A stretch of DNA of 64,000 nucleotides from Nitrospira sp. (lineage in GTDB: Bacteria; Nitrospirota; Nitrospiria; Nitrospirales; Nitrospiraceae), in contig JACOEM010000012.1 of NCBI GenBank assembly GCA_024998565.1, forward strand, positions 45,403 to 109,402. The letters are read 5' to 3'. Below are positions 3,028-49,614 of the stretch, piece by piece. A program made the translations under genes and the position numbers. The notes beneath the pieces were generated by a model. That model was given only the letters and a program-made list of their open reading frames with translations, ran no database searches and was not told the origin of the DNA. Numbering within the stretch: position 1 is the first letter of the stretch; each line of letters begins with the position of its first letter.

Positions 3028-5539
<2,512 letters not shown>

Positions 5540-7374: not shown

Positions 7375-7451
7375 AGATCGCTGCCGCGCGACGGTGAGCA
7401 ACGTTTCATTCGGTCTGCGCTGCACGCTAGGATAGATAGACGGAGGTCCGT

Positions 7452-33648: not shown

Positions 33649-34854
33649 ATGCATATCACGAGAAAAAAGACGCGGCAGATTCAAGCGGGATCGGTCAAGA
33701 TCGGCGGAGATGCGCCGATTTCAGTCCAGTCGATGTGCTCGACGGATACACGCGATGTGAACGCCACGGTGGCCCAGATCCGTCAACTGGAAGAGGCCGG
33801 ATGTGAACTCATTCGTGTTGCCGTCCCTGATGACGAGGCGGCAGCGGCGCTTCCCCAGATCAAAGCCGCGATGACGGTTCCGCTGATCGCCGACATTCAC
33901 TTCGACCACCGCTTAGCCCTCAAGGCGGCGGAGGTGGTGGATTGCGTCCGCATCAATCCGGGCAACATCGGGGCCTGGTGGAAGGTGCAGGAAGTCATCA
34001 AGGCCGTCAACGAGCGGGGCATTCCCTTGCGCGTGGGCGTCAATGGCGGCTCGCTCGAACGTCCGCTGTTGGACAAGTATGGCTGGCCCTCTCCCGAAGC
34101 CCTGTCGGAGTCGGCGTTGAACGCCGTCCATGCCTTGGAAGACGAGGGCTTCACCAATATGAAGGTGTCGCTCAAGGCTTCCGACGTGCACCATGCCATC
34201 GATGCCTACTATTTGTTCTCCACCCAGGCCAATTATCCCCTGCATATCGGAATCACAGAAGCCGGTACGGCCATGACGGGCGCGGTGAAGTCCGCGATCG
34301 GCCTTGGCTGGCTCCTGTCGCAAGGGATCGGTGATACCCTCCGAGTCTCATTGGCGGCGGATCCGGTGGAGGAAGTCAAAGTCGGGTTCGAGATCCTCAA
34401 GTCGCTGGAGTTGCGCCATCGCGGCATCAACGTGATTGCCTGCCCGACCTGCGGCCGGGTTGAGATCGATGTGGTGCGCATGGCGAATGAACTGGAAAAG
34501 AAGCTCAGCCATATCAAGACGCCGCTGAACGTCTCCGTGCTCGGCTGTGTCGTGAACGGCATCGGGGAAGGCAAGGAAGCGGATATCGGTATCGCCGGCG
34601 GGGAAGGCAAGGGTATCCTCTTCAAGAAGGGCAAGTTGATGCGGAAAGTGCCGCTTGAAGAACTCATGGACACGCTGATCCACGAGGTTGAGTTACTGGC
34701 CAAGGAAAAAGAAGCCGAGGCCGCCGGCGTGACTCACGAAACGGCAGCATCGTCAGATGGGCAGGCGGAGCCTGGGTGGGAATTGATCGGCCATGCGCCG
34801 GATGAACATTCGACTATCGTCCGCGATATTCCTGTGCTTCCTACCAAGCGGTAA
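33649..34854 (+). CDS. ispG: (E)-4-hydroxy-3-methylbut-2-enyl-diphosphate synthase
   Basis: ADIHFD, RINPGN, HIGITEAG, CPTCGR, GCVVNGIGE. Confidence 0.98.
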   Translation: MHITRKKTRQIQAGSVKIGGDAPISVQSMCSTDTRDVNATVAQIRQLEEAGCELIRVAVPDDEAAAALPQIKAAMTVPLIADIHFDHRLALKAAEVVDCVRINPGNIGAWWKVQEVIKAVNERGIPLRVGVNGGSLERPLLDKYGWPSPEALSESALNAVHALEDEGFTNMKVSLKASDVHHAIDAYYLFSTQANYPLHIGITEAGTAMTGAVKSAIGLGWLLSQGIGDTLRVSLAADPVEEVKVGFEILKSLELRHRGINVIACPTCGRVEIDVVRMANELEKKLSHIKTPLNVSVLGCVVNGIGEGKEADIGIAGGEGKGILFKKGKLMRKVPLEELMDTLIHEVELLAKEKEAEAAGVTHETAASSDGQAEPGWELIGHAPDEHSTIVRDIPVLPTKR

Positions 34855-34914
34855 GCCGCCGATTTCCAGGCCAACAGTGTCGTCCCAACTGCTCGACTAG
34901 GGCCGTTTTGCCGG

Positions 34915-34944
34915 TTGTGTTCCAGCCCTGCTCCCTTCTATAAT
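34915..34944 (+). promoter_or_regulatory. Candidate tRNA promoter
   Basis: TTGTGT-18nt-TATAAT ending 10 nt before the tRNA. Confidence 0.55.
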
Positions 34945-34954
34945 CACCCCCCGT

Positions 34955-35030
34955 GGCGCCGTACCCAAGTGGCTAAGGGAGCAGTCTGCAAAACTGCGAT
35001 GCGGCGGTTCGAACCCGCCCGGCGCCTCCA
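34955..35030 (+). tRNA. tRNA-Cys (GCA)
   Basis: Acceptor GGCGCCG/CGGCGCC, anticodon stem GCAGT/ACTGC with loop CTGCAAA, T arm GGTTCGAAC, discriminator T + CCA. Confidence 0.97.
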
Positions 35031-36175
35031 ATCATTCCTGCAGATATCTCAGAGGGTTCGGTGATTCTGACCGGACCCTGTTCCACCCGCTGATTTTCGT
35101 TACTCCCGGTTTTACTCCCGGTTCCACTCGCACTTTTCGACGCAATCGCTCCTAAACTCGCTCGATTTACCGCCGTTCGCAGATGGGCCGGGGAGAGATG
35201 GGCGTAGCGCATTGTCATCGTGATCGTGGAATGGCCCATCAGTTCCTGCACTGTCCTGATATCCACTCCTGCCATGACAGCCCGAGACGCGAAGGTATGC
35301 CGTAAGGTGTGCCAGGTGACATCTTCGATTTTAGCTCGCTTCAAGGCTGGCTCGTAGATCTTCACCACAAAGTTGCGCCCCTGCATCGGTTGTGCGGAGG
35401 TAAGAGGACTCGGGAACAGGAATGGGCTGTGCATCCACGAGGTGAGACCCTTGACGATGTCCAGCGCGGCATCCGTCAGAATGACGTGGCGGGTCTTGCC
35501 GGACTTACTCAATGGAATGGTCAAGATGCCCTGTTCGGTGTTCAGGCAGTCCCAGCGCGAATGAAACTGCTCGGTGAGGCGTAACCCTGTTTCGAGAGCG
35601 AAGGCCACAATCAACCAGTGCTCTGGAGGCAAGGTATCGCGCAGGCTGGAGATTTCTCTATCACTAAGGAACCGTAGTCGCCCGGCTGGTTCTGAAAAGA
35701 ACTTCACGCCTTTGACTGGATTGGCCGAAAGCAAACCATCGGCAATCGCCAAGTTCAGGATGCGTCGCAGGGCTCCAAAGTAGCGGTTAATCGTTCGGGC
35801 GGTTCGTGTGCCCTTGTGCTTCATTTTGGCTTGGATATGCCGTAAGTCGTCGGCGGTAATCTCGGTCAGAAGCTTCCGTCCTAGGAGCTTCGACCAGAAC
35901 TTTCCATAGCGATGCACATTCCGAAGACCTGGTGAAGTCACGCCTTCCAGATACCGCGCAATCCATGCCCGGAGGGTCAATTCCTTGGAGACGGCATACT
36001 TCTCGGGAAAGTAGCGATTTTCGCGAGCCTCGGACCGCAACCGACCGTACAGTGTCTTGGCTTGGCTCTTGGAGTCCGCCCGGAACCATTTCTCCCGGCC
36101 ATTCACATACAGGCGGACCCACCAACCGCCTTGCTTAAACACCACCCCACGGTCTTTACCGTTTCGCCTTGCCAT
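34973..36175 (-). CDS. int: Tyrosine recombinase/integrase
   Basis: N-terminal arm-binding-like domain, TGLRLTE (R), SKSGK (K), HTLRH, LMGHS, RYAH (Y); stop lies inside the tRNA. Confidence 0.95.
   Translation of the reverse strand: MARRNGKDRGVVFKQGGWWVRLYVNGREKWFRADSKSQAKTLYGRLRSEARENRYFPEKYAVSKELTLRAWIARYLEGVTSPGLRNVHRYGKFWSKLLGRKLLTEITADDLRHIQAKMKHKGTRTARTINRYFGALRRILNLAIADGLLSANPVKGVKFFSEPAGRLRFLSDREISSLRDTLPPEHWLIVAFALETGLRLTEQFHSRWDCLNTEQGILTIPLSKSGKTRHVILTDAALDIVKGLTSWMHSPFLFPSPLTSAQPMQGRNFVVKIYEPALKRAKIEDVTWHTLRHTFASRAVMAGVDIRTVQELMGHSTITMTMRYAHLSPAHLRTAVNRASLGAIASKSASGTGSKTGSNENQRVEQGPVRITEPSEISAGMIGGAGRVRTAASQFCRLLP
35100..35135 (+). repeat. 12-bp-period tandem repeats (TTACTCCCGGTT x2 plus a degenerate unit), probable integrase arm sites
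   Basis: Read directly; same motif occurs near the other att copies. Confidence 0.7.
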
Positions 36176-36872
36176 CGGGCTTTCCCTTTCGGTTTTTCAT
36201 GTCGGAATCCGCCGTTGTGCCAGTCCTACCTACTGAGGCTTTTTGTTTCTTCGGTAGATGTTTCTCTCGCCATTTACGAGTGGCCACTCGTGTCTGGCAC
36301 CGAGGACCGCAGTATGTTTGATCAAACCGAATCGCTAAGTAAATCCGTTGGCATTCTGGGCAACGGCGAATTCGCCCGGAATAGTCGACCAATAAATGGG
36401 CGAACCGATATTCAAACTCCTTCACTTTTCGCTTTGTGGCAACAAACACATTCCCTTTTCGTTCGTGGTCCGCGCCAGGCAGTGTGACAATGATGGTGAA
36501 TTGAGGGAACGTGAAGGCAGTCACTGCCTTTTCCCATAAGTTTTCCAGGCTGTGGAGGACCATGGTCTGAACCTCCTTGGCCTCTGCGCTGCTTGGAATA
36601 GTGCCACGAAACCTCTCTCCTGGGATAGATTGGACGCTCCACCCTCCTTCTGTCGCGATTTCCTCCCCATGGCGATTCGCGACGTCATCCACAAAGCTGG
36701 CCACCTCGAAAGCCAGGACCATCCATTCACTTGGCGTGAGAGCTTCTAGGTCGGTCTGGATAAACTTCAAGAGCCAGCCGACTTCGCCGTCTGCTGTGGT
36801 GAGAATCCGCTCTCTGGCCTTCTTCATCTCGCCGTAGAACTGCTCAAAAATTGCGGCACGGTCTATGGTCAT
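36156..36872 (-). CDS. Hypothetical protein with C-terminal CGNR-like zinc finger
   Basis: RRCPECQRIY...TYCGPRCQTRVATRKWR; GGAGAGG RBS; stop overlaps int start. Confidence 0.65.
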   Translation of the reverse strand: MTIDRAAIFEQFYGEMKKARERILTTADGEVGWLLKFIQTDLEALTPSEWMVLAFEVASFVDDVANRHGEEIATEGGWSVQSIPGERFRGTIPSSAEAKEVQTMVLHSLENLWEKAVTAFTFPQFTIIVTLPGADHERKGNVFVATKRKVKEFEYRFAHLLVDYSGRIRRCPECQRIYLAIRFDQTYCGPRCQTRVATRKWREKHLPKKQKASVGRTGTTADSDMKNRKGKPDGKAKR

Positions 36873-37015
36873 CTGACCTCTCCTTCTGTAGCTGGCTTCG
36901 GCAGCTTCATCACTCCACCCCATTTCATATGAAAAAACTGGAGGTGAACGAGGCACCTTGGGACTGAAAACTCTTGGGGAGTGTACCTCGTCAATGGTAA
37001 TGCATGTCAATGAGC

Positions 37016-37043
37016 GTTATGCCTAATAAGTATTAGGCATAAC
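37016..37043. promoter_or_regulatory. Perfect 13-bp inverted repeat (operator-like) between divergent genes
   Basis: GTTATGCCTAATA-AG-TATTAGGCATAAC. Confidence 0.65.
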
Positions 37044-37077
37044 AGAAATGATTCACTCATTACCAAGGAGGTGCCCG

Positions 37078-37287
37078 ATGGTCCCGAGTACAAAATTGAT
37101 CACCATTCGAGAAGCGGCAAATCGGTTAGGGCTCAAGGAAAGCACGATCAGGAAATACATCCTGAAACGGCAGATCGCCTATGTGAAGCCGTCGGTGCGC
37201 GCCGTACGGATTCCCATCGAAGAACTCGAACGGATTCTGTCTGCCGGCCTCAGACCTGCCATCCCTCAAGCGGAAGGTGCCCGATGA
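37078..37287 (+). CDS. Excisionase-like helix-turn-helix protein (HTH_17/MerR-like)
   Basis: LITIREAANRLGLKESTIRKYI...VRIP pattern; AAGGAGG RBS. Confidence 0.8.
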   Translation: MVPSTKLITIREAANRLGLKESTIRKYILKRQIAYVKPSVRAVRIPIEELERILSAGLRPAIPQAEGAR

Positions 37288-37997
37288 GCCGCTGGAAGGA
37301 GTTCCGGCGGGAGCCCGTCGCCGGGGAATGGACGCGAAAGCAGAAACGAGGCTATCACCGCGTCCGGTCGCTGCTTTGGTTCTGGGAATGCCACCAGTTC
37401 CAGGTGCTCTGGGTCACGCTCTCCACGGCAGAAGGCGGGGATGCGGAGAAGCTGACCTACCATCATAAACAACTGCGTCAGCGGATCGAACGCCAGCTCG
37501 GCTTTCAGGGGTTGGAGTATTACCAGGTCCGGACTGAGGAAGGGCATGGCGTCCTCCATATCTTCTGGGCCTGGCGGGTGCCGGACGGGGAGCGCGCCCG
37601 CCGCTTCTGGATCTCTCAGGAATGGCTTTCCTCCCAGTGGCAAGCCCTCCACGGGGCTCCGGTGGTCTGGATCAAGGCCTATCAGCCTAGCCATCGTTCA
37701 CGAAACCGTCTCAGCCGCTATGTCATCAGCCAGTACGTCCAGGATCAATGTGGCTACGTGAATATGTGTTGGTCCTGGAAGCGGTCGCTGGGCTTTCCCA
37801 TCAGCCGACTGTGGGAGGAGATGCGGCATCAATGGTCGACCAGGAATGCCTACCGACGGATCAGAGGCGAGATTGAAATCCCGAGGATCGTTTTCATCAA
37901 GACCTGGGAGGATCTGCTGTCAGGGCATCCCATTTGGTTTAGCGGCACCATTCTGCAACTCGTGCTGGGGAAGGGGCTTGTCTATCAGGAGGTGTGA
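37284..37997 (+). CDS. Putative rolling-circle Rep-like protein (atypical HUH motifs)
   Basis: WVTLST (motif I-like), EEGHGVLHIF (motif II-like), RYVISQY (motif III-like); ATGA overlap with xis stop. Confidence 0.5.
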   Translation: MSRWKEFRREPVAGEWTRKQKRGYHRVRSLLWFWECHQFQVLWVTLSTAEGGDAEKLTYHHKQLRQRIERQLGFQGLEYYQVRTEEGHGVLHIFWAWRVPDGERARRFWISQEWLSSQWQALHGAPVVWIKAYQPSHRSRNRLSRYVISQYVQDQCGYVNMCWSWKRSLGFPISRLWEEMRHQWSTRNAYRRIRGEIEIPRIVFIKTWEDLLSGHPIWFSGTILQLVLGKGLVYQEV

Positions 37998-37999
37998 GG

Positions 38000-38227
38000 A
38001 TGATCTGGCATCGATGCGATCTGAAGCTGCCGAGTCTATTTGGGCCGGCAGGTTGCAGACGGGAAGCCACCACGTATGATCGTGCGCGCAAAGCCTGTCT
38101 CTGTTCTGAGCATACGAAGGAACGGCTCTGCGAGTTTTGCCAATTTGAACGGGCGTGGGTGCGGTTTTGTTATAGGGAGCATGACGTCACATGCGAAATC
38201 TGGCTCTGTATCGACTGTGCGGGCTGA
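38000..38227 (+). CDS. Small Cys-rich hypothetical protein
   Basis: 75 aa with 10 Cys including CLC, CEFC, CIDC; AGGAGG RBS; abuts rep stop. Confidence 0.5.
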   Translation: MIWHRCDLKLPSLFGPAGCRREATTYDRARKACLCSEHTKERLCEFCQFERAWVRFCYREHDVTCEIWLCIDCAG

Positions 38228-38366
38228 CCACTCGTAGTCTCGATTCTTAAAATTCTCGGCTACCGCCACATGGAATATTCGCTCGATTAAACCAGGCCTT
38301 GGCATTGAAAGCGGACATTTCCTCAGCATGCCAGGATTTTTTCAGTTGGGTCTATAATCTATGGCT

Positions 38367-38394
38367 GTGATGAATTTGTGACGGACGCTATGCT
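38367..38394 (+). promoter_or_regulatory. OmpR-type direct repeat and -10-like hexamer upstream of response regulator
   Basis: GTGA at 38367 and 38378 (11-bp period), TATGCT at 38389. Confidence 0.5.
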
Positions 38395-38420
38395 AAAGGC
38401 ATTCCTGCTGCCTCGAATAT

Positions 38421-39149
38421 ATGGTTTTTATGGCTAAACAAATTCTTGTCGTAGAAGACGACTTAGATATTGGTCGGCTCTTGGAGATGCACCTGACCGA
38501 CACCGCATATGCCGTAGAGATCGCCAAAACCGGAGAGGATGGCCTTCAATGTGTGCTCTCGAAGAGATATGACCTTATTATTCTTGACGTGATGCTGCCT
38601 GGCATCGACGGGTTAGAGATATGTCGGCAGCTTCGATCGCTCCCCACCTATACACCCATCCTCATGTTGACTGCGAAATCCTCAGAAATAGACCGGGTCC
38701 TTGGGCTGGAAGTTGGTGCTGACGACTATGTTACTAAACCATTTAGTGTTCGAGAACTGCTCGCACGTGTAAAGGCCCTCTTCCGCCGTTCTGAAGCATT
38801 TAGAGATAAGACGCAGGACCTTCAGAAAACTATCCGCGCAAAGGGCCTCTTCATCGATGTTGAAAAACGGAAGGTCACAGTGAGAGGCAGCTTGAGGGAT
38901 CTCACGGCCAAAGAGTTCGATTTGCTCCTGCAGTTTGCATCCCATCCAGGCCGAGTTTATACGCGCAGTCAGCTTCTCGATTCGGTCTGGGGTTACGGTC
39001 ACGACGGCTATGAACACACGGTAAATTCCCATATCAACAGATTGCGCGCCAAGATTGAAAAGGATTCGGCCAAGCCCGACTTTATTCTGACTGTGTGGGG
39101 CGTCGGATACAAATTCTGTGAACTAGAAGGATCCGGCTTAAAGGACTGA
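38421..39149 (+). CDS. OmpR-family response regulator
   Basis: DLIILDVMLPG, LTAK, KPF, HTVNSHINRLRAKIE. Confidence 0.93.
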   Translation: MVFMAKQILVVEDDLDIGRLLEMHLTDTAYAVEIAKTGEDGLQCVLSKRYDLIILDVMLPGIDGLEICRQLRSLPTYTPILMLTAKSSEIDRVLGLEVGADDYVTKPFSVRELLARVKALFRRSEAFRDKTQDLQKTIRAKGLFIDVEKRKVTVRGSLRDLTAKEFDLLLQFASHPGRVYTRSQLLDSVWGYGHDGYEHTVNSHINRLRAKIEKDSAKPDFILTVWGVGYKFCELEGSGLKD

Positions 39150-39151
39150 CC

Positions 39152-40630
39152 ATGTCGCGGTCACTCTACGGCAAACTCGCCCTTGTGTTGCTCTTCCTGT
39201 TTTGTGCGGTTGGGGTTCTATACACTCTCCTAACGGTCTTCACGACGCGCATGTATCAGCAGGAAGTGAATCAGAAGCTGAACCGTGCTCTGGCCAGAAA
39301 CATTGTTGCTGACCAGTTACTAAGCAGCCAAGGAGAGGTGAGTCCGTACGCTCTGAAAGAACTGTTTCACCTACTTATGGTTATCAATCCGAGCATTGAG
39401 ATGTACTTGCTTGATGAGAATGGGGGCATAGTCAACTTCTCCGCTCCCACTGAGAAGGTCAAGCGCTCGGCTGTCTCGTTAGAACCAATACATCGTTTTC
39501 TCACCGAGGCGGACGCATTTCCTATTCTTGGTGACGATCCCCGTGATGCGACTCGCCAGAAGGTCTTTTCTGTTTCAGCCATACCCTTACACGGACAACC
39601 AACAGGATATCTGTACATTGTCCTTGGCGGAGAGGAGTATGACTCCGTCGCCGATATGCTGAATCGGAGCTACATCTTCCGGCTGAGTCTCTGGGCAGCA
39701 CTTACCGGCTTACTGTTCGCTCTTTTGGGCGGTCTCTTTCTATTCAACATGCTCACCAGAAGGTTAACCAAACTAGCATCGACGATGGAAACGTTCGCAA
39801 AGAGCGATTTTTCAGAGGCGCTCGAGCTGCATCCTCAGGATTTCATTCCTGAGCGGAATAGTGATGAAATTGATCGGCTCCGGTCCACATTCAATCGGAT
39901 GGTAGAACGAATTCTTCAGCAAGTGGCCACTTTGAAGCAGACGGACATCCTTCGGCGTGAGTTGGTGGCCAATGTGTCCCATGATTTGCGTACCCCCCTG
40001 GCATCCTTGCATGGGTATCTGGAAACGTTACTGATGAAAGAAGGGACGCTTACACGAGAGGAATACCGGACGTTTCTCGACATTGCCCTCAAGCAAAGCC
40101 AACGGCTTAGGGAGCTTGTGGGGGAACTCTTTGAATTGGCTCGCTTAGATTCGCGTGAAGCTCGCATTCAATGCGAACAATTTTCTTTAGCCGAGCTTGT
40201 CCAGGATGTGTGTCAAAAGTTTCAACTCACCGTCGCAAATAGGGGGATAGCCCTAAAGAGCAGTTTTACAGATGATCTGCCATTTGTGGAGGCTGATATC
40301 GGCCTCATCGAGCGGGCGCTAGAAAACATAATCAATAATGCTACTCGCTATACACCGAGCGGAGGGACCATTGCGATTTCGTTAAGCCACGAATCCGGCT
40401 CGGTTATGATACGAATTTCTGATACTGGCTGTGGTATCGCTGATCACGACTTGCCTTATATTTTTGATCGTTTTTATAGGGCGAATCGACAAAATCAGCC
40501 TGGAGGAGCTGGGCTCGGGCTGGCCATTACTAAGCGAATCCTAGAGCTACATGGAAGTACAATTCGAGCAGAGAGTATACCTAACATCGGAACCATCATC
40601 AGCTTTGAACTGCCCACCGTGCACTTCTAG
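39152..40630 (+). CDS. Sensor histidine kinase (periplasmic sensor-HAMP-HisKA-HATPase)
   Basis: Two TM helices, NVSHDLRTPL, ENIINNA, DTGCGI, GAGLGL. Confidence 0.93.
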   Translation: MSRSLYGKLALVLLFLFCAVGVLYTLLTVFTTRMYQQEVNQKLNRALARNIVADQLLSSQGEVSPYALKELFHLLMVINPSIEMYLLDENGGIVNFSAPTEKVKRSAVSLEPIHRFLTEADAFPILGDDPRDATRQKVFSVSAIPLHGQPTGYLYIVLGGEEYDSVADMLNRSYIFRLSLWAALTGLLFALLGGLFLFNMLTRRLTKLASTMETFAKSDFSEALELHPQDFIPERNSDEIDRLRSTFNRMVERILQQVATLKQTDILRRELVANVSHDLRTPLASLHGYLETLLMKEGTLTREEYRTFLDIALKQSQRLRELVGELFELARLDSREARIQCEQFSLAELVQDVCQKFQLTVANRGIALKSSFTDDLPFVEADIGLIERALENIINNATRYTPSGGTIAISLSHESGSVMIRISDTGCGIADHDLPYIFDRFYRANRQNQPGGAGLGLAITKRILELHGSTIRAESIPNIGTIISFELPTVHF

Positions 40631-40674
40631 TCTCTATTGTTCTCGACCGTTACGGGCCGCTCGCCACATCAGGC

Positions 40675-40728
40675 GTGATAAAAATGTGACAATTTCGTGA
40701 GATCGATGTGAAGGGGCAGGGCTATGCT
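40675..40728 (+). promoter_or_regulatory. Four GTGA direct repeats at 11-bp period upstream of cld
   Basis: GTGA at 40675, 40686, 40697, 40708; TATGCT at 40723. Confidence 0.6.
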
Positions 40729-40781
40729 TGACCATGCATTGGGTTGTACCAGCCCTTTTAACCGAAAAGGAGAACGGACTT

Positions 40782-41576
40782 ATGAAGAGAATCAGTCAGA
40801 TTTCGATGGTTGCGCTTCTATTATGCTTCCTTCCCATGTTGTCTGTAGTGAGTGAGGCGGCCATGGATCACGACAAGCTCTTAAAGGATCCTGGTGTCTA
40901 CGCAACGTTTGCTGTGTTCAAGATGGGGGAGCACTGGTGGCAGATGGATCATGAAGCGCGTGTCAAGGCGGCCTCCGAAATGAAAAAGGTGTTCGAAAAG
41001 CACGCCGATAAGTTAATAGTCGATACGCATTTGCTTCGTGGTCTGTCTGAGAGAGCTGATGTACTTGTCAGGATTCACTCGAAAGAGATGGTTCATAATC
41101 AGAACTTCTTGTTAGACCTCATGGGGACCACTATGGGGATGGATATGAAAAATACTGACACCTTCAATGGCATCACCAAAACCCTAAATTATGTCCCTAG
41201 CTTCCCAGAAGAACTGAAGGGGGAGTTGAAGACACCGCCACCTCAGGGCAGCCCATACGTTATAGTGGTTCCTATACGCAAGGACGCAGAATGGTGGATT
41301 TCTGGACAAGACACCCGAACAGGCCTGATGAAGGAACACACGGATGCGACGGTCGCATACTTGAAGACGGTGAAACGGAAGCTCTATCACTCCAGCGGGT
41401 TGGATGATTGGGATTTTATTACCTACTTTGAAACATCCAAGCTGGATGATTTCAACAATCTTGTGACTGGATTGCTCAAGGTCAAGGAGAACCGTCATAA
41501 TAGGCGTTTCGGTGATCCTCTCCTGTTGGGGACCATTCGACCATTGGATGAAATCCTCGATATTCTCAGTCGCTAG
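40782..41576 (+). CDS. cld: Chlorite dismutase (long/clade 1 type, exported)
   Basis: Signal peptide; PIRKDAEWW, proximal EHT, distal Arg in KTVKRKLYHS, DFITYFET, KVKENRHNRRFG, matching the recalled Nitrospira defluvii Cld layout; 264 aa. Confidence 0.88.
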   Translation: MKRISQISMVALLLCFLPMLSVVSEAAMDHDKLLKDPGVYATFAVFKMGEHWWQMDHEARVKAASEMKKVFEKHADKLIVDTHLLRGLSERADVLVRIHSKEMVHNQNFLLDLMGTTMGMDMKNTDTFNGITKTLNYVPSFPEELKGELKTPPPQGSPYVIVVPIRKDAEWWISGQDTRTGLMKEHTDATVAYLKTVKRKLYHSSGLDDWDFITYFETSKLDDFNNLVTGLLKVKENRHNRRFGDPLLLGTIRPLDEILDILSR

Positions 41577-41605
41577 TCTATTTCGCTCGCGCGTTCCAGA
41601 ACACG

Positions 41606-41636
41606 GTGACCACCTGGGAACAGGTGGTCACTTCTA
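41606..41636 (+). terminator. Hairpin after cld
   Basis: GTGACCACCTG-GGAA-CAGGTGGTCAC perfect 11-bp stem. Confidence 0.6.
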
Positions 41637-41695
41637 TGCTGGTACTCACAAATCTTTACTTCTAATACTTAGTTATAGGCTCTATATCCGCCCCA

Positions 41696-41972
41696 CCCTG
41701 TCACCACCTGTTGGCTTCTCAGGGGGTGAGAGGGAGGAAATGCAGGGTTATTTTCAAGTGGTGACGGCGATGCGCTAGCTTGGCCGTCCCCTTGGTGAAT
41801 TAGTGGCCATGCAGAGTTGAGATGAAGACTTTGTCTGCCCAGGATTATCAACTAGACGCGAAATATGCTGACCACGAAGGCCCGCCGGCCGCTCCGGACT
41901 GCCGGGGCCGGACGGCCGGGGGGCTCGGGGGCGCAGCCCCCGCTTCACTTGATCTATATGGTCAAAGTAGGA
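41696..41972 (+). repeat. Origin-like module copy A (hairpins + 95-bp repeat)
   Basis: Homologous to 43920-44194; 95-bp core 41878-41972 matches copy B at 84/95, last 48 bp identical. Confidence 0.8.
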
Positions 41973-42173
41973 CGACCCTTCCTTTGGGTTCTCAGGCGGA
42001 AGCCTAACTTTTGGGCGGGAGGATTCAGTTTCAAGGAAGCGCTCGCCGATTGCCTAAAGATTTTGCGCGAGCCTCTGAGGAACCTCGAAATGTCGATCTA
42101 ATGAGGTTATATTTCGATAATCTTTAATGCAGAGGGGTGCCGGAAAGGCAAAGGCTGAACGAAAAAAGGATCC

Positions 42174-43403
42174 ATGAGAATTAAACTAAAAAAAGGGACG
42201 CCTCAGTGGTTCAAGTGGAAACTTAGTTTCTTAGGTGAGCCCGCTCCGATTAATCCGATGGCACTGTTTGCTGGAAACATGTGGAGTTACTTCGATCCTG
42301 GATCTCCAAATGAAAGATATGAAAATTTCATACGGAACGGCCGGCATCCTCTATCGACCTTTTTGGATAGCATGCTTCTGTATGACAAGGTTATTGTCCC
42401 AACTCATGACTTCATGTCGGTTGTTATTTTGATAAGTGTTTTTGGAGAAGATGGCGTTGCAGAGCTGATTGAAAATAATGCAGTTAGTTTTGTACGTGTG
42501 AAAGGGGCACTTGCGTACATAGGGAACGGGGGTGGCCTTGCATCATACGACATTCTTCACGACCAAACTCGCCCTGTAGATCAATTTGCGGATGATGATT
42601 CAACCTTGGAGTGGGCCCTGAATGGGCTCAGTACGAAGCCGAGAAGGGTGAACTTAAGTAGGATGATCCTTGAGAACACCCAAACATTCCCGATGGAGAA
42701 GATGGTTTCTCTGATCCGCGAGGAGTCCTACAAGGATATTTTAGATGGCCCATATTTAAGGACTGCTTTTAGCCTCAGGAATACCAGTCTTGATCATTTG
42801 TTTGGTGTTGAGCCCAATCAATTTAGGTGTGGGGAAATTCAGACTTTCGAAGAGCGAGATGAAATTGATTCCGTTCTTAGAATCGCCCGCGCCAATCTAG
42901 AAATGTTGCTTGCATTACAGACTGGTTGCACGGATACAGCTACTGGAACGCCTGTTGGTCACGTATTGAAGGCGAAACAGCAGCGAGGCAGTGCTAGATC
43001 TAGTCCTTTTGAGAGATTTGGATCCCTGAAAGAAATTACAGAAGTTCCCGATATCGCGAGTTATGTAATAGATGCTTCGATTCCAGATAGACCAGCACGC
43101 CTGCATGACATTTTGATTAAGCGAGGGACTAGAGATGCTGTTCAATTTAGAGCGTGGTTTCATGAAAAGTGTCGTGACAGTCCTCACGTAATTGCCAAGG
43201 AATACGGGAGATTAATGCATGATATTCCATTTGTTTCGACTCACAAAGGCAAGACTTTGCGTCTTTTGGCTACGACAATGGCGGGAGTGTATGACCCCGC
43301 TCTGGGCTTGGTAACCTCCATCGCAGACAGCTTTCTTGTAGATCTTGTGCGGAAACGAAACCCGAAGTATTTTATTGAGGATCTACGGCAAATTAATAAT
43401 TAA
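42174..43403 (+). CDS. Hypothetical protein (AT-rich cargo; start uncertain)
   Basis: 409-aa ORF, no recognisable motif, AT-richer than core genes. Confidence 0.7.
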   Translation: MRIKLKKGTPQWFKWKLSFLGEPAPINPMALFAGNMWSYFDPGSPNERYENFIRNGRHPLSTFLDSMLLYDKVIVPTHDFMSVVILISVFGEDGVAELIENNAVSFVRVKGALAYIGNGGGLASYDILHDQTRPVDQFADDDSTLEWALNGLSTKPRRVNLSRMILENTQTFPMEKMVSLIREESYKDILDGPYLRTAFSLRNTSLDHLFGVEPNQFRCGEIQTFEERDEIDSVLRIARANLEMLLALQTGCTDTATGTPVGHVLKAKQQRGSARSSPFERFGSLKEITEVPDIASYVIDASIPDRPARLHDILIKRGTRDAVQFRAWFHEKCRDSPHVIAKEYGRLMHDIPFVSTHKGKTLRLLATTMAGVYDPALGLVTSIADSFLVDLVRKRNPKYFIEDLRQINN

Positions 43404-43479
43404 TTAGTATGTTGGTTTTGACGGGCAGTGTTATTGGGAACTGATTCGCTTCCCACCAATCTACGGCAACGTACAAACC

Positions 43480-43527
43480 CTGATCCCGGTTTTAGTCCCG
43501 GTTCCACTCCCGATTTTGCTCCCGGTT
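43480..43527 (+). repeat. Four tandem 12-bp units (xxxxTCCCGGTT), probable arm sites at the right end of element 1
   Basis: CTGATCCCGGTT TTAGTCCCGGTT CCACTCCCGATT TTGCTCCCGGTT. Confidence 0.75.
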
Positions 43528-43646
43528 GGGAGTCCTCTTTAGTCGTAAATGGGCACCAATAAAATGTCGTAACACCTTGTTATTTAATGGCCTTACTCTC
43601 TGTCTGTCGCTGTTGATCTTCATGGGTCGTAGAGCCCTCGGGCAAG

Positions 43647-43691
43647 CTGCAAAACTGCGATGCGGCGGTTCGAACCCGCCCGGCGCCTCCA
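43647..43691 (+). repeat. att copy 2: 45-bp duplicate of tRNA-Cys 3' half
   Basis: Identical to 34986-35030; starts exactly at the first base of the anticodon loop. Confidence 0.95.
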
Positions 43692-43919
43692 TACCCTGCT
43701 TGCTCGATCCGGATCCCTTACGATTGTTCTTGGCGACGGAATAAGCACCTCCCTGGCATTCCGGGTAATTTTTCCTGACTAGGCCCCGCCCCTCGTCATT
43801 CCCCTTGCTCCCGGTTTTACTCCCGGTGCGGTTCAGACTTTCACGGCGATCCCTTTCAACCGGCTCTATTGCACGGGACTCACGTGATGGCGATAAGGCT
43901 GAGCCGAGCTGATCAATTT

Positions 43920-44194
43920 CTCCCTGTCACCAGTCTTTTATCCGTGACGAGTGACAGGGAGCTATACCCCTTCCTCATGCCAGGCGGCGAAGCGTCAGCT
44001 TGGCCGTCGGTCTGTTCCATCGTTCGCGACAAACAATGAAAGAAGAAACCGAAGTTGAGACCATCGGAATGCTTACGAGTGCGGACGTTCCGCCCAACGA
44101 GGCCCGCCGGCCGCTTCGGGTCCTGCGGACCGGACGGCCGAGGGGATCGGGGGCGCAGCCCCCGCTTCACTTGATCTATATGGTCAAAGTAGGA
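43920..44194 (+). repeat. Origin-like module copy B
   Basis: 11-bp IR CTCCCTGTCAC/GTGACAGGGAG, 23-mer GGCGAAGCGTCAGCTTGGCCGTC, 95-bp core 44100-44194. Confidence 0.8.
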
Positions 44195-44263
44195 TGGCCG
44201 AATTGCCGAAAAAGTGAGCTTGAAGTAGTATCGTTTAACACTTCGCTTGAGCGAAATTCTCCA

Positions 44264-44608
44264 ATGGACATTACCGGTGCAAGCCCAGGAAGATTTGAAT
44301 TAGGAATACGGCTATTCCTTGAGGGGCAGGCTGTTCTCTACAACGAGGTCGTTTTTTGGAAAGATGGGGACAAAGCCTTGCATGTGAATAGCTACTCCGA
44401 CTGGAACTGCGAAAATACGACTCCTGACATGGCACGACAAAAAATTGAGAGGTCTAAGGCAGTCTTAGAAGAACTTTCCGAGAAGAGCAATGAATTCTCG
44501 GAAGTAGCTAATCGGTTGCCGCATGCACACTATTTTTGTCATGACTGTGGAAACGCGGGCATAGTTTTAGCCAAAGAATTAAACGGTGAGTTCACCTGGC
44601 TGTGCTAG
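44264..44608 (+). CDS. Small hypothetical protein (immunity-protein-like size and composition)
   Basis: 114 aa from MDITGASP; the upstream part of the tracked ORF runs through the origin repeat and is probably non-coding. Confidence 0.55.
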   Translation: MDITGASPGRFELGIRLFLEGQAVLYNEVVFWKDGDKALHVNSYSDWNCENTTPDMARQKIERSKAVLEELSEKSNEFSEVANRLPHAHYFCHDCGNAGIVLAKELNGEFTWLC

Positions 44609-45020
44609 AGCCATGCAATTATATCCTAGGCTTCTTGGACAAAGATCTTAGGCTGATCTCAGCAGTTCAAATTTCAGCGTCCGACACGGATACAGTCCGT
44701 TGAGCAATTTGGACGCCATACATACTTTTTCATTCTTCGAGGGCTAACGCTCGAAGCCTTGGTCACCACAGCAGGAATAGGTTTAAACGGTATCCTTAGA
44801 CGCGTAAACCTCCTGTCGCAACCATAGATCTCTTACCTGAGCACAGCATTCCGGTAGCGGCGAAAACTACGCCCCCTACGTCTGCGGGCTTTTGAATAAA
44901 GAATTCCGCAGATACCATCCAATCTTTGCCATTGCTGGTTCAAGTTGTGACGGGTTCTTCTTTCCACTAAGCACTCTGCCACCGCTAGTGACATGTGCCT
45001 TAACCAGAGGGAGAAATGGT

Positions 45021-45536
45021 GTGAACAACGAATTTGTTCAGGTCTGTGTTGACGATGGCACCATCGCAGCCGGAGATCCGTGGGAAGTCATGGAGCCGGT
45101 TTTGTGGTCAGCTAATATCTATGATGGGCCAGAGCAATACGAAATAAGTCTGTCAGGATTTTCGATTCCCCAGCGCCTTGTCTACGCCTTGATGTGGTAC
45201 CGCATTGAAGTCAACAATGGCGGCCACGATCAATTCTATTTCAACTCAACTGGAATAGTGTGGAAGGACGCCTTGAACGCGTTCGAGGCGCTGGAGCTCC
45301 CCGAGTTCGCCAATATCCTCAGAGGGTCGACGGAACGGCTGGGTGGATCGCCTTCGCTTGATCGTCAGGCGCGTAACGAACAGTTAGAATCGATTGAGCC
45401 AGACTTCGACGATCTAGACGAGGCGTTTTACGAGGCCGAGAAAAGAATGGACCTTGATCATCGGATCATGAGTTTCATACGTGCACGACCTTCAGCTTTT
45501 TATTTTGTTGGAGAAGTTAGGAAACCTGCGGACTGA
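45021..45536 (+). CDS. DMP19/DUF4375-family protein
   Basis: EVNNGGHDQFYFNSTG signature, very acidic (FDDLDEAFYE); GTG start behind GAGGGAG. Confidence 0.75.
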   Translation: MNNEFVQVCVDDGTIAAGDPWEVMEPVLWSANIYDGPEQYEISLSGFSIPQRLVYALMWYRIEVNNGGHDQFYFNSTGIVWKDALNAFEALELPEFANILRGSTERLGGSPSLDRQARNEQLESIEPDFDDLDEAFYEAEKRMDLDHRIMSFIRARPSAFYFVGEVRKPAD

Positions 45537-45739
45537 GGCGGTTCAGACCGTTTGTACCCTTGAAGATACATTACATTTGAGATGCTCGGCAATTGAGGAC
45601 AGCCTGCAGTAGGCATGGTTAGGCCTTGGTTAGCTGGAATATGTAGCCTCGGTGATCGGTTAGATAGGCCTGCCGGAGACAACCGCCCCTCCTACATCAC
45701 ATTGTATTGATTGCAACAGCTCTGACCTCGTGAGGGTAT

Positions 45740-46159
45740 ATGCCCTGGTGTATATCATTCCAAATCTATGGTGAAGAATTTCATCCTAGTCGGGTTCCGT
45801 TCCAATTCACTAAGCAACACGACCCTGGCATTATCGGACGCAGAGGACGTTACCGCGGGCGACCAGTTCTCTATGGGTCTGCATCCTATGAAGTTCCTTC
45901 TTCAATTCCAAATATTGACAGGATCAGGCATGTGGTTGAAACCTTTGAGCCTCTATTGGGCGATATTCGCGCTGCAGGTGCTACAGAGTGGCATATTGAT
46001 ATCTGTCGTTATTTCAACGCCCAGTGCAATGAAGCTTATTCACTCGACGATTTGCTATTGATCGCTCGGCTTCAGTGTGGATTCTGGTATTCAGCCTACA
46101 GTGTCTCGAAGAAAGAAGAGAAGAGATTGCAACGGGAATTGGGAGGATTTCGGCCATGA
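45740..46159 (+). CDS. Small hypothetical protein, weakly DUF4279-like
   Basis: FQIYGEEFHP...G pattern; GAGGG RBS; family call tentative. Confidence 0.5.
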   Translation: MPWCISFQIYGEEFHPSRVPFQFTKQHDPGIIGRRGRYRGRPVLYGSASYEVPSSIPNIDRIRHVVETFEPLLGDIRAAGATEWHIDICRYFNAQCNEAYSLDDLLLIARLQCGFWYSAYSVSKKEEKRLQRELGGFRP

Positions 46160-46538
46160 GTTACCCGTTGCCGAAAAGGTAATAAGCGAAGCCCCATTCG
46201 TGGCCTCCCGCTGGGCTCACTAGAAACATGAGTTCCATTGAGATTGAAGGCTCCGATGCTGGCCTGACTCAGCGGCACTAAGCGGATGCTGAATGATAGG
46301 AAATACTTCTAGACATTTGAACCGGTGGCGTCCGATTCGGAGACAGGCCGTTGAGGTGTTCTGCCTTTCGAAACAGTTACGTCGGCGTACAAACCCTGGT
46401 CCCGGTTTTGCTCGCGGTTGGGAATCCGCTTCGGTGGCAAATGGGCACAAGGAAAAGTTGTTAAGCTATTACGCTTCTTGATTATTCTTTTCTGTCGATC
46501 GCTGTTGATCATCATCTGTCTTACGGCCATCGGGCAAG

Positions 46539-46550
46539 CTGCAAAACTGC
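46539..46550 (+). repeat. att copy 3 (5' part only: CTGCAAAACTGC)
   Basis: Preceded by CGGGCAAG as at copy 2; homology to the tRNA stops after ACTGC. Confidence 0.75.
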
Positions 46551-46731
46551 ACTGTAGGAAAATAAAACGGGGGAACCTTCGCCATACACACCGCTAGTAG
46601 CCGACACCCGCCGAACATGCAATGCGTGCGTCCTTATCAAACAGTCCTTTAGCATTTTACTTATCGCGGCAACCAGCGTTGGTTCATGCTAGTCTGCAGC
46701 ATAGCAGACGACCTTCTACCTGAGAGGACTC

Positions 46732-48477
46732 ATGGCCCCTGAACCTATTTTTTTTCGAGATCTCGCGTATGTCTTTATCGCTGCGGTCCTAGGCGGGGCC
46801 TCCGCCTATCTGCTTCGTCAACCGTTGATTCTGGGCTATGTCTTCGGCGGCATTCTGATCGGCCCCTTTACCCCTGGTCCCTCTATTTCGGATGTCCATA
46901 GTTTCGAATTGTTCGCCGAGATTGGCGTGATCCTCTTGATGTTCTGCATCGGGATCGAATTTTCCTTAAATGATTTGTTACGAGTTCGGTGGGTCGCCCT
47001 GCTGGGAGGGCCACTCGGCATTTTCCTCTCCATTCTCCTCGCTGTCGGTCTGAGCCATGTTGTGGGATGGAGTTGGATTCAAAGCGTGGTGATCGGGTCG
47101 GTGGTGTCCGTGGCGAGCACGATGGTTCTGGCGCGCTTGCTGCTGGACAGTGGAGATTTGCGTGCCAAGCATGGCCGGGTGATGATCGGGATCACACTCG
47201 TGGAAGATCTGGCGGTGGTTGTGCTCACCGTCCTGCTTCCGGCGCTCGGTGCTCTGGAACCAGGCCGCTTTGCCACGATTGGAAAGGCCTTGTGGCTCGC
47301 GGTCCTCATCCTGGTTCCCTTCGCCTATCTCGCGGCGAAAGCCATTCCTCCGTTGTTGACACGCATTGCGAAGACACAAAATGCCGAACTCTTTCTGCTG
47401 GTAGCGTTGTCTATAGGAATCGGCACGGCAGCCGTCACACAGATGGCGGGGTTGTCCCTGGCGCTCGGCGCGTTTCTGGCAGGATTGATCATCAGCGGCT
47501 CAGAATATGGTCACGAAACCTTAGCCCGCCTCCTGTCGCTCCGTGACGCTTTCGTGGCTCTGTTTTTTGTGACGATCGGTGTCCTCATCGATCCGCGCGT
47601 GGTGTGGGCCAATCTCCCGTTGCTCGGCCTCATGCTCGGATTGATTATCGTGGGGAAATTCGTCATTTGGACGCTGGTCGTGAGGCTGTTTCGTTATGCT
47701 TGGGGCACCGCCCTGCTCGTGGGCGTCGGTCTCACGCAGATTGGCGAATTTTCTTTCGTGTTGGTTCAGGTCGCTAAAACGGCGGGACATGTGAGCGAGG
47801 ATGTGTATAATGCCACCCTGGCCGCTTCGCTGCTGAGCATTCTCCTCAACGCGCCCCTCGTTCGGTATGCGCCTGGGTGGATCGCTGCATTACATTTTAA
47901 AATGGGACGAGTGTCCTTGCCCATTCAAGGCGGGATTTCTGACGAGCAAGCCGGGCATGTGGTGCTGTGTGGGTTCGGTCGCATGGGCAGTGCGGTGGGA
48001 CTCGCCCTCGATCATTTTGAGCTTCCGTACACCGTGATTGAGCGCGACCCGGACATCGTTCGACAGTTGCGCCGACGCGGAATTTCCTGCGTCTACGGGG
48101 ATGCCTCGCAAACTGAGCTGTTGAAAGCGGCCGGTGCCCAACATGCGGCGTTGGTGATCGTGGCGCTTCCGGTCATTCACGAGACGTCGCTTACCGTTCG
48201 ACGATTTCGGGGGCTGAACGAAAAAATTCCCCTTCTCGCCCGAGCGCATGGCTTTAGGGAGGCTGAGGACCTGAAGGAGGTGGGAGCGACGGAAGTTATC
48301 CTGCCCGAGGTCGAGGGGGCACATACCTTGATCCGACACGCCTTCCAGGCCTTGAAGGTCTCGAAGTCGAGCATCCTCGATTATCTTAAGTCCTGCCAAG
48401 CGTTTCGATCGTCCGGTGAGGGACCTGATTCAGGGAACGTGGAGGCCGGGAAGGCTGGCGCTGGGCGAAGTACGTGA
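46732..48477 (+). CDS. CPA2 cation:proton antiporter with TrkA-N/KTN domain (Kef/YbaL-like)
   Basis: IGVILLMFCIG, SVASTMV, EDLAVV, GAFLAG, QIGEFSFV, CGFGRMG, YGDAS. Confidence 0.9.
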   Translation: MAPEPIFFRDLAYVFIAAVLGGASAYLLRQPLILGYVFGGILIGPFTPGPSISDVHSFELFAEIGVILLMFCIGIEFSLNDLLRVRWVALLGGPLGIFLSILLAVGLSHVVGWSWIQSVVIGSVVSVASTMVLARLLLDSGDLRAKHGRVMIGITLVEDLAVVVLTVLLPALGALEPGRFATIGKALWLAVLILVPFAYLAAKAIPPLLTRIAKTQNAELFLLVALSIGIGTAAVTQMAGLSLALGAFLAGLIISGSEYGHETLARLLSLRDAFVALFFVTIGVLIDPRVVWANLPLLGLMLGLIIVGKFVIWTLVVRLFRYAWGTALLVGVGLTQIGEFSFVLVQVAKTAGHVSEDVYNATLAASLLSILLNAPLVRYAPGWIAALHFKMGRVSLPIQGGISDEQAGHVVLCGFGRMGSAVGLALDHFELPYTVIERDPDIVRQLRRRGISCVYGDASQTELLKAAGAQHAALVIVALPVIHETSLTVRRFRGLNEKIPLLARAHGFREAEDLKEVGATEVILPEVEGAHTLIRHAFQALKVSKSSILDYLKSCQAFRSSGEGPDSGNVEAGKAGAGRST

Positions 48478-48512
48478 ATGTCTGAATTAACTGCGGCGTC
48501 ATCCAATCTCTT

Positions 48513-48550
48513 ACTGCGATGCCGCGGTTCGAACCCGCCCGGCGCTTCCA
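48513..48550 (+). repeat. att copy 4 (3' part, 2 mismatches to tRNA-Cys)
   Basis: ACTGCGATGCCGCGGTTCGAACCCGCCCGGCGCTTCCA, 36/38 identical to 34993-35030. Confidence 0.85.
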
Positions 48551-48667
48551 AACAGAGCTTGCTCGACCCGGAGCCTTTACGATTGTTCTTGGTGCCGGGA
48601 TAACCTAGTCATCACCTTCTCGTTCATTCTGTTTCTGCCTGCCGGCAGCCCGTGCTGATACCGGCGT

Positions 48668-49156
48668 TCAGCGGCTCACCTCGGCAATTCGCCGTTCTTG
48701 TTCTTTTAGTTTCCGACTTGCGGCAAGGGTGTCCGGATCCAGCAGGCCATGGAGAATCTCCTGTCTCAGTTGCATGAACAGCGGCTCGTGCCTGACGGAT
48801 GCGGGCTGACCGCCTTGCAGCAGGGTGAGCCAGCGAGTGCTGGAGGCGGCATAGCGGCCGTTCGGCACGGTGGTGCGCAATTCTTGGAAGGCGTGGATCG
48901 CATCCTCGCGGTTCTCAAATAACGCGACCAGGCCCCTGAGGTACGTCACCTCTTCACAGCTGGCGTTCTGCTGGCAATTCGCCCGCCGCGCTTCCTGGGT
49001 TCGGCTCACCACCTGCAATGCCTCTCGCTCTTTTACATCGGTCTCAAAAAAAGCGCTGCTCGGCAGCGTGACAAACGGCCCCGCACCGGCACAACCAAAG
49101 AAGCCGCTGATGAGCAGTACCCAGAGTGAACTGTGCGCAACGTTTCTTCCATTCAT
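48668..49156 (-). CDS. Hypothetical lipoprotein (helical/TPR-like)
   Basis: Lipobox-like FFG-C after hydrophobic stretch; helical body. Confidence 0.6.
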   Translation of the reverse strand: MNGRNVAHSSLWVLLISGFFGCAGAGPFVTLPSSAFFETDVKEREALQVVSRTQEARRANCQQNASCEEVTYLRGLVALFENREDAIHAFQELRTTVPNGRYAASSTRWLTLLQGGQPASVRHEPLFMQLRQEILHGLLDPDTLAASRKLKEQERRIAEVSR

Positions 49157-49614
49157 ACAATACCTCCAGGTAGTAACCGGATCGACAGCTTGTGTGCATG
49201 TCATTGGTTCTGTCGGGTGATCGCCGGCTCGCCTCTCCGTCCAGCCCGGCGAGTCCCAACATTCGATGTGACGGACTTGCAGGCTGAGTCCCGCCTGGCG
49301 AGGATGCCTGGCTCAGATTGCCCGGTGGTCTCTAAGGAAAGACTCGATGCAACGGTGGCTGAATTCGAGAGGATGACGACAGGACAGTTGCAGCACCGGA
49401 GTAGCCCGGGATTGTGTGTGAACACGTCAGCACGGATGGCCGCCTTTCGAGCGTTGTCGGCGGTGGCAGGCCGCAAGCAAACGACAGGGAATCACACACA
49501 CGGAGTGTAACTCTTACCGTAAGCTTTCCCCTCAAGAAAAGCAAAGGGTGGTCCGGCATACGTCGCCGGGGGCGGCTGAGGCAACGGGTTTCGTTGGCTG
49601 CGGGGGGAGCAGGT

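Follow-up and report, generated by a model that had tools for sequence, protein, structure and literature searches.

We analysed a 64,000-nucleotide (nt) stretch of Nitrospira sp. DNA (assembly GCA_024998565.1, contig JACOEM010000012.1, positions 45,403-109,402, forward strand; here called the window), in which two small elements, element 1 and element 2, lie in tandem behind a tRNA gene. Nitrospira is the main nitrite oxidiser of wastewater plants. The sole tRNA gene of the window, tRNA-Cys(GCA), is at 34955-35030. By sequence comparison the host is a lineage I Nitrospira near Candidatus (Ca.) N. defluvii, with amino acid (aa) identities to the latter of 97% for Kef and 98.8% for GcpE (species-representative genomes were scanned with Kef). 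In five Nitrospira genomes (L012, L015, L018, L022 and L023; L-numbers denote public genomes or metagenome loci, and L012 is Ca. N. defluvii) the order is gcpE, tRNA-Cys, 360-640 bp, and a Kef-type antiporter gene. Because only 360-640 bp separate tRNA-Cys from Kef in those genomes, elements 1 and 2 together constitute an 11.5-kb insertion between the two genes. The G+C content of the elements (0.45-0.52, versus ~0.59 in the flanks) agrees with an insertion. The subject of this work is element 2, the Kef-proximal unit at 43647-46550.

The 12-bp attachment (att) core CTGCAAAACTGC, which spans the tRNA-Cys anticodon loop together with the 3′ strand of its stem, occurs in exactly three copies in the window (34986, 43647 and 46539), with 0 expected by chance. 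The distance from the second to the third copy, 2892 bp as an earlier note on this DNA had stated, defines element 2. The features of the region, with open reading frames (ORFs) numbered from left to right, are as follows.

35103-35136 and 43482-43529, left and right 12-bp-repeat arm clusters of element 1
43647-43658, + strand, middle att core CTGCAAAACTGC, where element 1 ends and element 2 begins
43647-43691, + strand, copy of the tRNA-Cys 3′ half, identical to 34986-35030 at 45 of 45 positions
43692-43797, left-arm spacer of type B, different from the element 1 spacer
43692-43866, - strand, int remnant, the last ~60 codons, frame-broken (tblastn with Int residues 377-398 and 352-361)
43805-43828, + strand, left (P′) arm with two 12-bp repeats, TTGCTCCCGGTT TTACTCCCGGTG, containing one exact TCCCGGTT and one with one mismatch
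43862-43882, + strand, deletion junction with GGCTC microhomology, joined to the last ~7 p77 codons; the p77 stop position reads TCA
43883-44194, + strand, conserved non-coding region of ~312 bp, candidate rolling-circle origin, with an inverted repeat (43920-43961), GC-rich hairpins (44100-44165) and CTTGATC (44170-44176)
44264-44608, + strand, ORF1, ~114 aa, in an open frame that reaches back to 44000 across the conserved module
44650-44733, + strand, orientation-specific motif, with a weaker copy near 46328-46355
45021-45536, + strand, ORF2, DMP19-like (DUF4375; PF14300, E = 1.1e-23), a 171-aa gene in public contigs
45740-46159, + strand, ORF3, 139 aa, conserved family
46378-46538, + strand, right (P) arm, with two 12-bp repeats at 46398-46421, GGTCCCGGTTTT and GCTCGCGGTTGG
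46539-46550, + strand, right att core CTGCAAAACTGC; the host DNA next to it, ACTGTAGG..., is not tRNA sequence
46732-48477, Kef-type antiporter (PF00999 and PF02254)

The 12-mers are putative arm-type binding sites. Their 8-mer TCCCGGTT is present 12 times in the window versus 2.8 expected, and 7 of the copies fall inside the four arm regions. Translated from the minus strand, the element 2 left arm gives TGSKTGSKGN, which corresponds to TGSKTGSNEN at Int residues 352-361, so that the earlier note was right in seeing TGSKTGS, and with it an int tail, in these repeats. It was also right that the unit contains three small genes and no recombinase or Rep ORF: the three ORFs are all on the + strand, and only the int-tail remnant accompanies them. 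The same note described a right end lacking two of the four 12-mers of element 1. The right arms of the two elements align over ~190 bp with 74-85% identity, and a clean 24-bp gap, the length of two 12-mers, is indeed found in element 2; paired adjacent right-arm 12-mers are also present, however, in N. defluvii and in the second unit of L049, and they may represent a subtype trait rather than a loss. The 20 bp ending in the right core, CGGGCAAGCTGCAAAACTGC, are identical in both elements. The ends of element 2 are direct repeats, and no terminal inverted repeats that would pair them were found. Integration would have been catalysed by a tyrosine integrase, with the crossover within the 12-bp core.

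Element 1 belongs to a family that was collected by scanning metagenomes with a 35-nt segment of the module in which the first five copies did not differ. The scan yielded 107 module-bearing metagenome loci. Wherever the upstream flank was available the order was constant: int(-), p284(-), xis(+), rep(+), p77(+), a non-coding region of ~270 bp that ends in the module, variable cargo, two to four arm 12-mers, and the core. A similarity search of the element 1 proteins found only the int tail in element 2, and neither p284, xis, rep, p77 nor the cargo of element 1; the minus strand of 43643-43827, which corresponds to the last Int residues, is the only protein similarity to element 1 that element 2 contains.

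How this state arose can be read from the junction at 43862-43882. To the left of ~43862, the sequence is homologous to the element 1 int tail, Int residues ~338-400 (alignment of 43780-44010), and from ~43866 it is homologous to the last ~7 p77 codons and to what follows them in full-length relatives. The alignments show one microhomology deletion, which took all of p284, xis and rep, int as far as codon ~337, and p77 except for its last ~7 codons. It left intact the tRNA half, both arm sites, all of the non-coding region, the cargo, and the arm and core of the right end. The claim that element 2 is a non-autonomous derivative retaining cis sites and cargo is thus upheld, since it has the cores, the arms and the full non-coding region, which lies past rep-p77 in ~70 full-length relatives, and lacks int, xis and rep. 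Its derivation from element 1, which the earlier note had proposed, is not. The left-arm spacer at 43692-43797 is of type B, which is also found after tRNA-Cys in N. defluvii and L017, and not of type A, which is found in element 1, L015, L016, L022, L026 (Nitrospira sp. UBC2) and L028; element 2 therefore descends from a sibling subtype. The cargo that it shares with the rep-positive locus L067 and with the tRNA-Arg remnant L113 likewise suggests that the parent was full-length. Among the loci examined there was no complete element of type B, and the only candidate helper in this genome is consequently the type-A Int of element 1, whose arm sites contain the same 8-mer as those of element 2. 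Recombination of element 2 would depend entirely on an integrase supplied in trans.

The int/p77 deletion junction is also present in N. defluvii (L012), which keeps Int residues ~337-400, and in the metagenome locus L047. The right junction, with the P arm, the core and ACTGTAGGAAAATAAAAC in that order, has orthologues in L012, L047, L024 and L013, and in these the right core is degenerate (CTGCCTTACAGC in N. defluvii and CTGCCTCACTGC in L024). The shared deletion and right junctions imply that the element 2 remnant predates the split of these lineages and was inherited in place, and the sequence comparison thereby shows vertical inheritance at the same locus. N. defluvii carries a second deletion from ~43997 to the P-arm 12-mers (it lacks 43997-46490), with which the module end and all cargo are gone. 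The exact ORF3 protein was indexed in 172 blocks of a public collection; all 10 contigs inspected were colinear with the locus, and those long enough to include flanks had element 1 upstream or Kef downstream. Among the public contigs that carry ORF3 with visible flanks, element 2 was not found at another locus or without its flanks. No circular, excision or empty-site junction of element 2 was seen among the assembled contigs examined, and the sequences give no sign of any movement of element 2 after the loss of its genes.

The relative age of the two elements is given by locus L151 (ENA ERZ27258505 k141_709123), in which gcpE/tRNA-Cys (34444-35030) is joined directly to 43647-48320 with 99.6-99.8% identity. 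Since L151 lacks element 1 exactly at the core and retains element 2, element 1 is the newcomer and is polymorphic in the population; element 2, contrary to its supposed origin from element 1, is the older of the two at this site. Because the tRNA half at 43647-43691 is joined in L151 directly to the tRNA 5′ half, this copy was, on the sequence, evidently once part of a working tRNA, from which the integration of element 1 displaced it.

Decayed elements at the tRNA-Cys site are the rule. A short int-tail remnant lies directly 3′ of tRNA-Cys in nearly all Nitrospira genomes examined, and other int-less units are present in L049, L028 and L071. In the window, a fourth, degenerate tRNA-Cys 3′ half lies at 48513-48603; it starts with ACTGC 36 bp past the Kef stop codon, the 53 bp that follow it are 87% identical to the type-B spacer of element 2, and it is conserved in the N. 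defluvii clade only (L012, L024, L017 and L047). Downstream of this remnant there was no matching right end, and a third element to its right was ruled out, with no arm, core or module found up to position 64000.

From these observations we propose, with considerable confidence, that element 2 is a resident, decayed remnant of a sibling Nitrospira small integrative element, lying beside an intact relative. In the proposed history, an ancestor in common with Ca. N. defluvii would have received a full-length type-B element, inserted into tRNA-Cys at its anticodon-loop core, and this element would have supplied the 3′ half of the working tRNA. A single microhomology-mediated deletion, as the junction shows, then removed the backbone genes. 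The remnant was inherited in place, as the shared junctions show, with N. defluvii afterwards losing the module and the cargo as well. Finally, as L151 shows, intact element 1 recently integrated into the re-formed tRNA, giving the present tandem of tRNA, element 1, core, element 2 and core. Element 2 would now be a cis-mobilizable element (CIME), whose movement, by itself or in a composite with element 1, would require recombination at its cores by the element 1 Int and Xis; and if its module is an origin, the Rep of element 1 could copy it.

The Rep-like protein of the family, encoded in element 1 at 37284-37997, has 237 aa and no Pfam, NCBIfam or PDB sequence match. An alignment of 27 sequences contains motifs of the type found in rolling-circle initiators, VLWVTLS/T, EGHGVLHIFWAW and LSRYVISQYV (read by eye). 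With the AlphaFold model (predicted local distance difference test, pLDDT, 84.5), the top PDB match was SIRV1 ORF119, a Rep, at E = 9e-3, and weaker matches were the Rep nuclease domains of circoviruses and nanoviruses; against BFVD there were 72 matches with E<1e-3, and the named ones are Microvirus replication initiators. The protein is thus predicted by the model to have the rolling-circle initiator fold. A homologue with 38% identity adjoins a Zot-type assembly ATPase in an IMG/VR contig, an inovirus-like context.

The earlier note had called a segment of element 2 an origin module. The module is present and the label is reasonable, although its basis is circumstantial, and the conserved region is ~312 bp (43883-44194) rather than ~100 bp. 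Positions 43909-44194 correspond to the complete p77-to-cargo region of ~60 full-length relatives, with 75-78% identity, and 44100-44194 is 91% identical to 41878-41972 of element 1. The 49-nt stretch 44146-44194 shows no change in any of 73 aligned copies, an apparent invariance that was forced in part by the 35-nt search pattern, which required CTTGATC itself. Elements 1 and 2 deviate from the module consensus at 16 and 15 of 114 positions, respectively, none of them in the last ~50 nt. Extra module decay in element 2 relative to the family was therefore rejected, the two elements being equally far from the consensus. In the int-less remnant of L028, which was found by synteny and not by the pattern search, the module has decayed to 76% identity. 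In L026 a run of N at ~7692-7780 masks the 5′ part of the module, and the comparison there covers 47 nt only. The module copy of element 1 folds with -36.4 kcal/mol (z = -4.7) and that of element 2 more weakly (-26.8 kcal/mol, z = -1.0). A check for structured-RNA covariation was uninformative either way, as the 72 unique module copies are too alike, and an Rfam scan of 34000-49500 at E<=1 returned the tRNA only.

Several features of the module speak for a replication origin. It is non-coding and very strongly conserved up to a sharp end. It is linked to the initiator-like gene, lying ~270 bp past rep-p77 across the family, and GC-rich hairpins lie directly upstream of CTTGATC (44170-44176). 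The phiX174 origin also contains CTTGAT. In pC194-type origins the conserved nick site is CTTGATA (PMC10378824), to which CTTGATC is a 6/7 match at a site fixed by the search pattern. The balance of these points inclines us, with some reserve, to regard the module as a putative rolling-circle origin, possibly also a transfer origin. It could instead be no replication origin at all, and have been conserved as an outward promoter, regulatory region or transfer origin that drives or mobilises the cargo; element 2 would then have retained it for the sake of its cargo only. Such a role would suit the finding that in 71 of the 79 distinct cargo contexts the first large ORF past the module points the same way as the module, the start of ORF1 only 70 nt past the module, and the sharp end of conservation where cargo starts. 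We consider it possible but doubtful, given that the protein encoded beside the module has a modelled rolling-circle initiator fold and that the near-match to the pC194-type nick site follows GC-rich hairpins. In addition, no sigma-70-like site was found in the module, and a sigma-70 promoter was for this reason rejected.

Whatever the module does, element 2 itself might be more than a remnant. The deletion took exactly the trans-acting genes. Element 2 retains two perfect cores, the right one preceded by 8 bp identical to those of element 1; in either arm a perfect TCCCGGTT site accompanies a nearly perfect one; nothing is missing from the non-coding region, whose 49-nt end is the same as in the other 72 copies; and int-less, rep-less derivatives that keep the module recur at tRNA-Arg (L071/L059 and L113). 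All this could describe an active non-autonomous satellite, excised by the Int and Xis of element 1, replicated by its Rep as a 2.9-kb circle and spreading as a parasite of element 1. We find this quite unlikely, however, for element 2 was seen at one locus only, every informative contig placing it between Kef and either tRNA-Cys or element 1, and its junctions are common by descent with N. defluvii. The same cis sites have been lost or have decayed in N. defluvii and L028, the left arm is of another subtype than that of element 1, and the contigs examined contain neither a circular nor an empty-site junction. Very unlikely, in our view, is that element 2 is a cis-mobilised passenger, with a composite of both elements excised via the cores at 34986 and 46539, as in accretions of CIMEs with integrative and conjugative elements (ICEs). 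The tandem with its three directly repeated cores has the required arrangement, and accreted CIMEs are mobilised in cis in other systems (PMC5704250), but the pair is seen in one chromosomal context only, element 1-like elements beside other remnants (L047, L049 and L127) indicate that element 1 travels without element 2, and L151 keeps element 2 without element 1.

Some observations weigh against simple decay. The displaced host tRNA 3′ half that would be expected past the right core is absent there. All three ORFs are intact and ORF3 is under purifying selection, so element 2 is not simply junk. The 49-nt module end and the 20 nt ending in the right core are unchanged, and the neighbouring remnant DNA is only ~70% identical to its N. 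defluvii orthologue; for 49 sites to stay unchanged under neutral drift is unlikely, roughly 0.85^49. The unchanged cis sites may reflect continued selection, conversion from incoming elements, or an overestimated neutral divergence. It is because these sites are unchanged amid ~70%-identical remnant DNA that we leave a small place for a working cis-only replicon, in which the cores, the arms and the 49-nt end would have been under selection ever since the backbone genes disappeared, a passing helper of the family, such as element 1, would excise the element with its Int and Xis and its Rep would amplify it; on balance, this is unlikely. The decayed sibling remnant remains the preferred reading of element 2.

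The cargo of element 2 is small and has relatives elsewhere. ORF1 has 10 homologues of ~118 aa, a small conserved family without annotation, and lies directly past the module in the rep-positive L067, with 86% nucleotide identity over 44091-44727; its dN/dS relative to the nearest DNA-level relative is 0.43. ORF3 has 34 homologues of ~141 aa. In L113, a related tRNA-Arg remnant that carries an ORF3 homologue, the nucleotide identity is 82%, and with a dN/dS of 0.16 relative to that locus ORF3 looks like a maintained gene under purifying selection. Neither ORF1 nor ORF3 had a match in Pfam, NCBIfam, PHROGs or PADLOC, and the model of ORF3 (pLDDT 82) had no PDB structural match with E<0.1.

A motif of ~60-80 nt, AA.TCAAATTG.AG.GTCCGAC..GGATA.AG.CCGTGGAGC, recurs in the cargo regions. 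With nhmmer 34 sites were found, each within a cargo region and on the module strand (L013, L053, L065, L067, L113 and others). There are often two copies per element, the last one just before the P-arm repeats. The motif may mark the boundaries of cargo cassettes. An attC-like hairpin was considered and rejected, with RNAalifold giving no consensus structure and no compensatory changes; Rfam gave no match.

Across the family, conservation ends sharply, within a few bases past ...TCAAAGTAGGA (the GTAGGA end), which corresponds to 44194/44195 in element 2 and 41972/41973 in element 1. At least 79 different cargo sequences begin at this module end (loci L039-L145), which points to a putative site-specific cargo hot spot directly after the module. 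Rep is 96-100% identical across most family loci, and Int 26-98%. At least one second integration target, tRNA-Arg(TCG), is used. The earlier note had suggested looking elsewhere for units that combine the origin module with other cargo. These exist, and int-less and rep-less ones are at tRNA-Arg in L071/L059 and L113. The derivative in L071/L059 (1-1300, tRNA-Arg(TCG)) has what remains of the int C-terminus, an ORF for a RelB-like antitoxin, the module-containing conserved non-coding region and, after these, 7 kb of cargo and arm repeats.

A two-component system (response regulator and histidine kinase) and a chlorite dismutase are encoded after p77 and ahead of the non-coding region in element 1 and a few relatives. 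In element 1 this block (38421-41576) comprises an OmpR-type response regulator, the histidine kinase and a chlorite dismutase with a signal peptide, and it recurs in many wastewater metagenome contigs with 89-100% aa identity. The int ORF of element 1 (34973-36175, - strand) spans the arm repeats and the tRNA 3′ half, with its stop inside the tRNA gene; as the att site lies inside the reading frame, the Int C-terminus must differ between the integrated and the excised form. Element 1-like elements adjoin other remnants in other backgrounds (L047, L127 and L049). In L049, from another sample, the unit behind the same element 1 (5216-8055) is a different int-less one of 2.8 kb, which encodes an Rrf2 regulator, a cupin and an NmrA-like protein; it is bounded by the core, the tRNA half and a repeated ~100-bp spacer and has two adjacent arm 12-mers. 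In L057 (3277-3400), an element 1-type right arm is joined to a left arm with different repeats, TTTTCTGGTTCCA, and not to the tRNA half; in L039 (4980-5010), such a right arm is followed by a degenerate core, CTGCTAGACTGC, and then by unrelated DNA. These two could be hybrid junctions or junctions at secondary sites.

By itself, element 2 is an ordinary example of the decay and tandem pile-up of tRNA-linked islands in Nitrospira. Its value is that it exposes a family with a cargo hot spot after the non-coding region and at least 79 different cargo sequences. This family represents abundant, undescribed small integrative elements with an Int, an Xis, a Microviridae-like Rep and a highly conserved non-coding region of ~300 bp. 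Should proteins supplied in trans still excise or replicate element 2, it would offer an uncomplicated natural setting in which to study what the family requires in cis. If it is a working cis-only replicon, it would be a helper-dependent integrative rolling-circle mini-element in a nitrifier and one of a recurrent class (L071 and L113).

Among known systems, the miniature inverted-repeat transposable elements (MITEs), to which the earlier note had likened it, resemble element 2 in that it keeps only cis sites and would need enzymes in trans to move. The likeness goes no further: the ends of element 2 are direct repeats of a tyrosine-recombinase core with arm sites, without terminal inverted repeats, and it is a single copy in the window, with a fixed locus between tRNA-Cys and Kef, 2.9 kb in length and with three genes. 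With phage satellites, such as P4 and the phage-inducible chromosomal islands (PICIs), it has in common the idea that a small element makes use of a larger helper integrated close by; those satellites, however, encode their own integrase and regulators and hijack helper particles, whereas element 2 lacks an integrase. Neither element 1 nor element 2 has a recognisable gene for packaging or capsid functions, and membership among the phage satellites was rejected, with Pfam, PHROGs, NCBIfam and PADLOC giving only the DMP19-like ORF2 for the three ORFs.

The pSAM2-type elements of actinomycetes have int-xis-rep modules and replicate by the rolling-circle mechanism after excision from a tRNA gene. 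It is the parent family, not element 2, that resembles them, in its tyrosine integrase, excisionase, rolling-circle-type Rep and integration into tRNA genes. Unlike pSAM2, the family lacks an FtsK-like transfer gene, and its Rep belongs to no Pfam family and has Microvirus initiators and SIRV1 ORF119 as its best structural matches; element 2 lacks int, xis and rep.

CIMEs are att-flanked elements that have lost their recombination genes and can be mobilised in cis. They arise by accretion in three steps, integration, decay and arrival of a newcomer, as in relatives of ICESt1/ICESt3 of Streptococcus thermophilus and the composite islands at tRNA-Lys of S. agalactiae (PMC5704250). Element 2 has the same three-step history and likewise lies in tandem with an intact relative at the 3′ part of a tRNA gene. 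It is bounded by attL/attR direct repeats (exact cores at 43647 and 46539, with arms on both sides), has no int, xis or rep ORF (only ~60 int and ~7 p77 codons remain), derives from an autonomous family member by deletion (the mapped junction, the retained region and the cargo of L067) and shares its att site with an autonomous element that lies between it and the tRNA, an allele lacking this element being known. It differs in that the parent family has no conjugation genes, its backbone being Int, Xis and a Microviridae-like Rep, and in that element 2 keeps a candidate replication origin. The host is Nitrospira. A further difference is that the newcomer, element 1, entered on the tRNA side (attL) and not at attR. 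With its mobilisation putative, element 2 fits a CIME in a tandem accretion, a known and fairly ordinary pattern.

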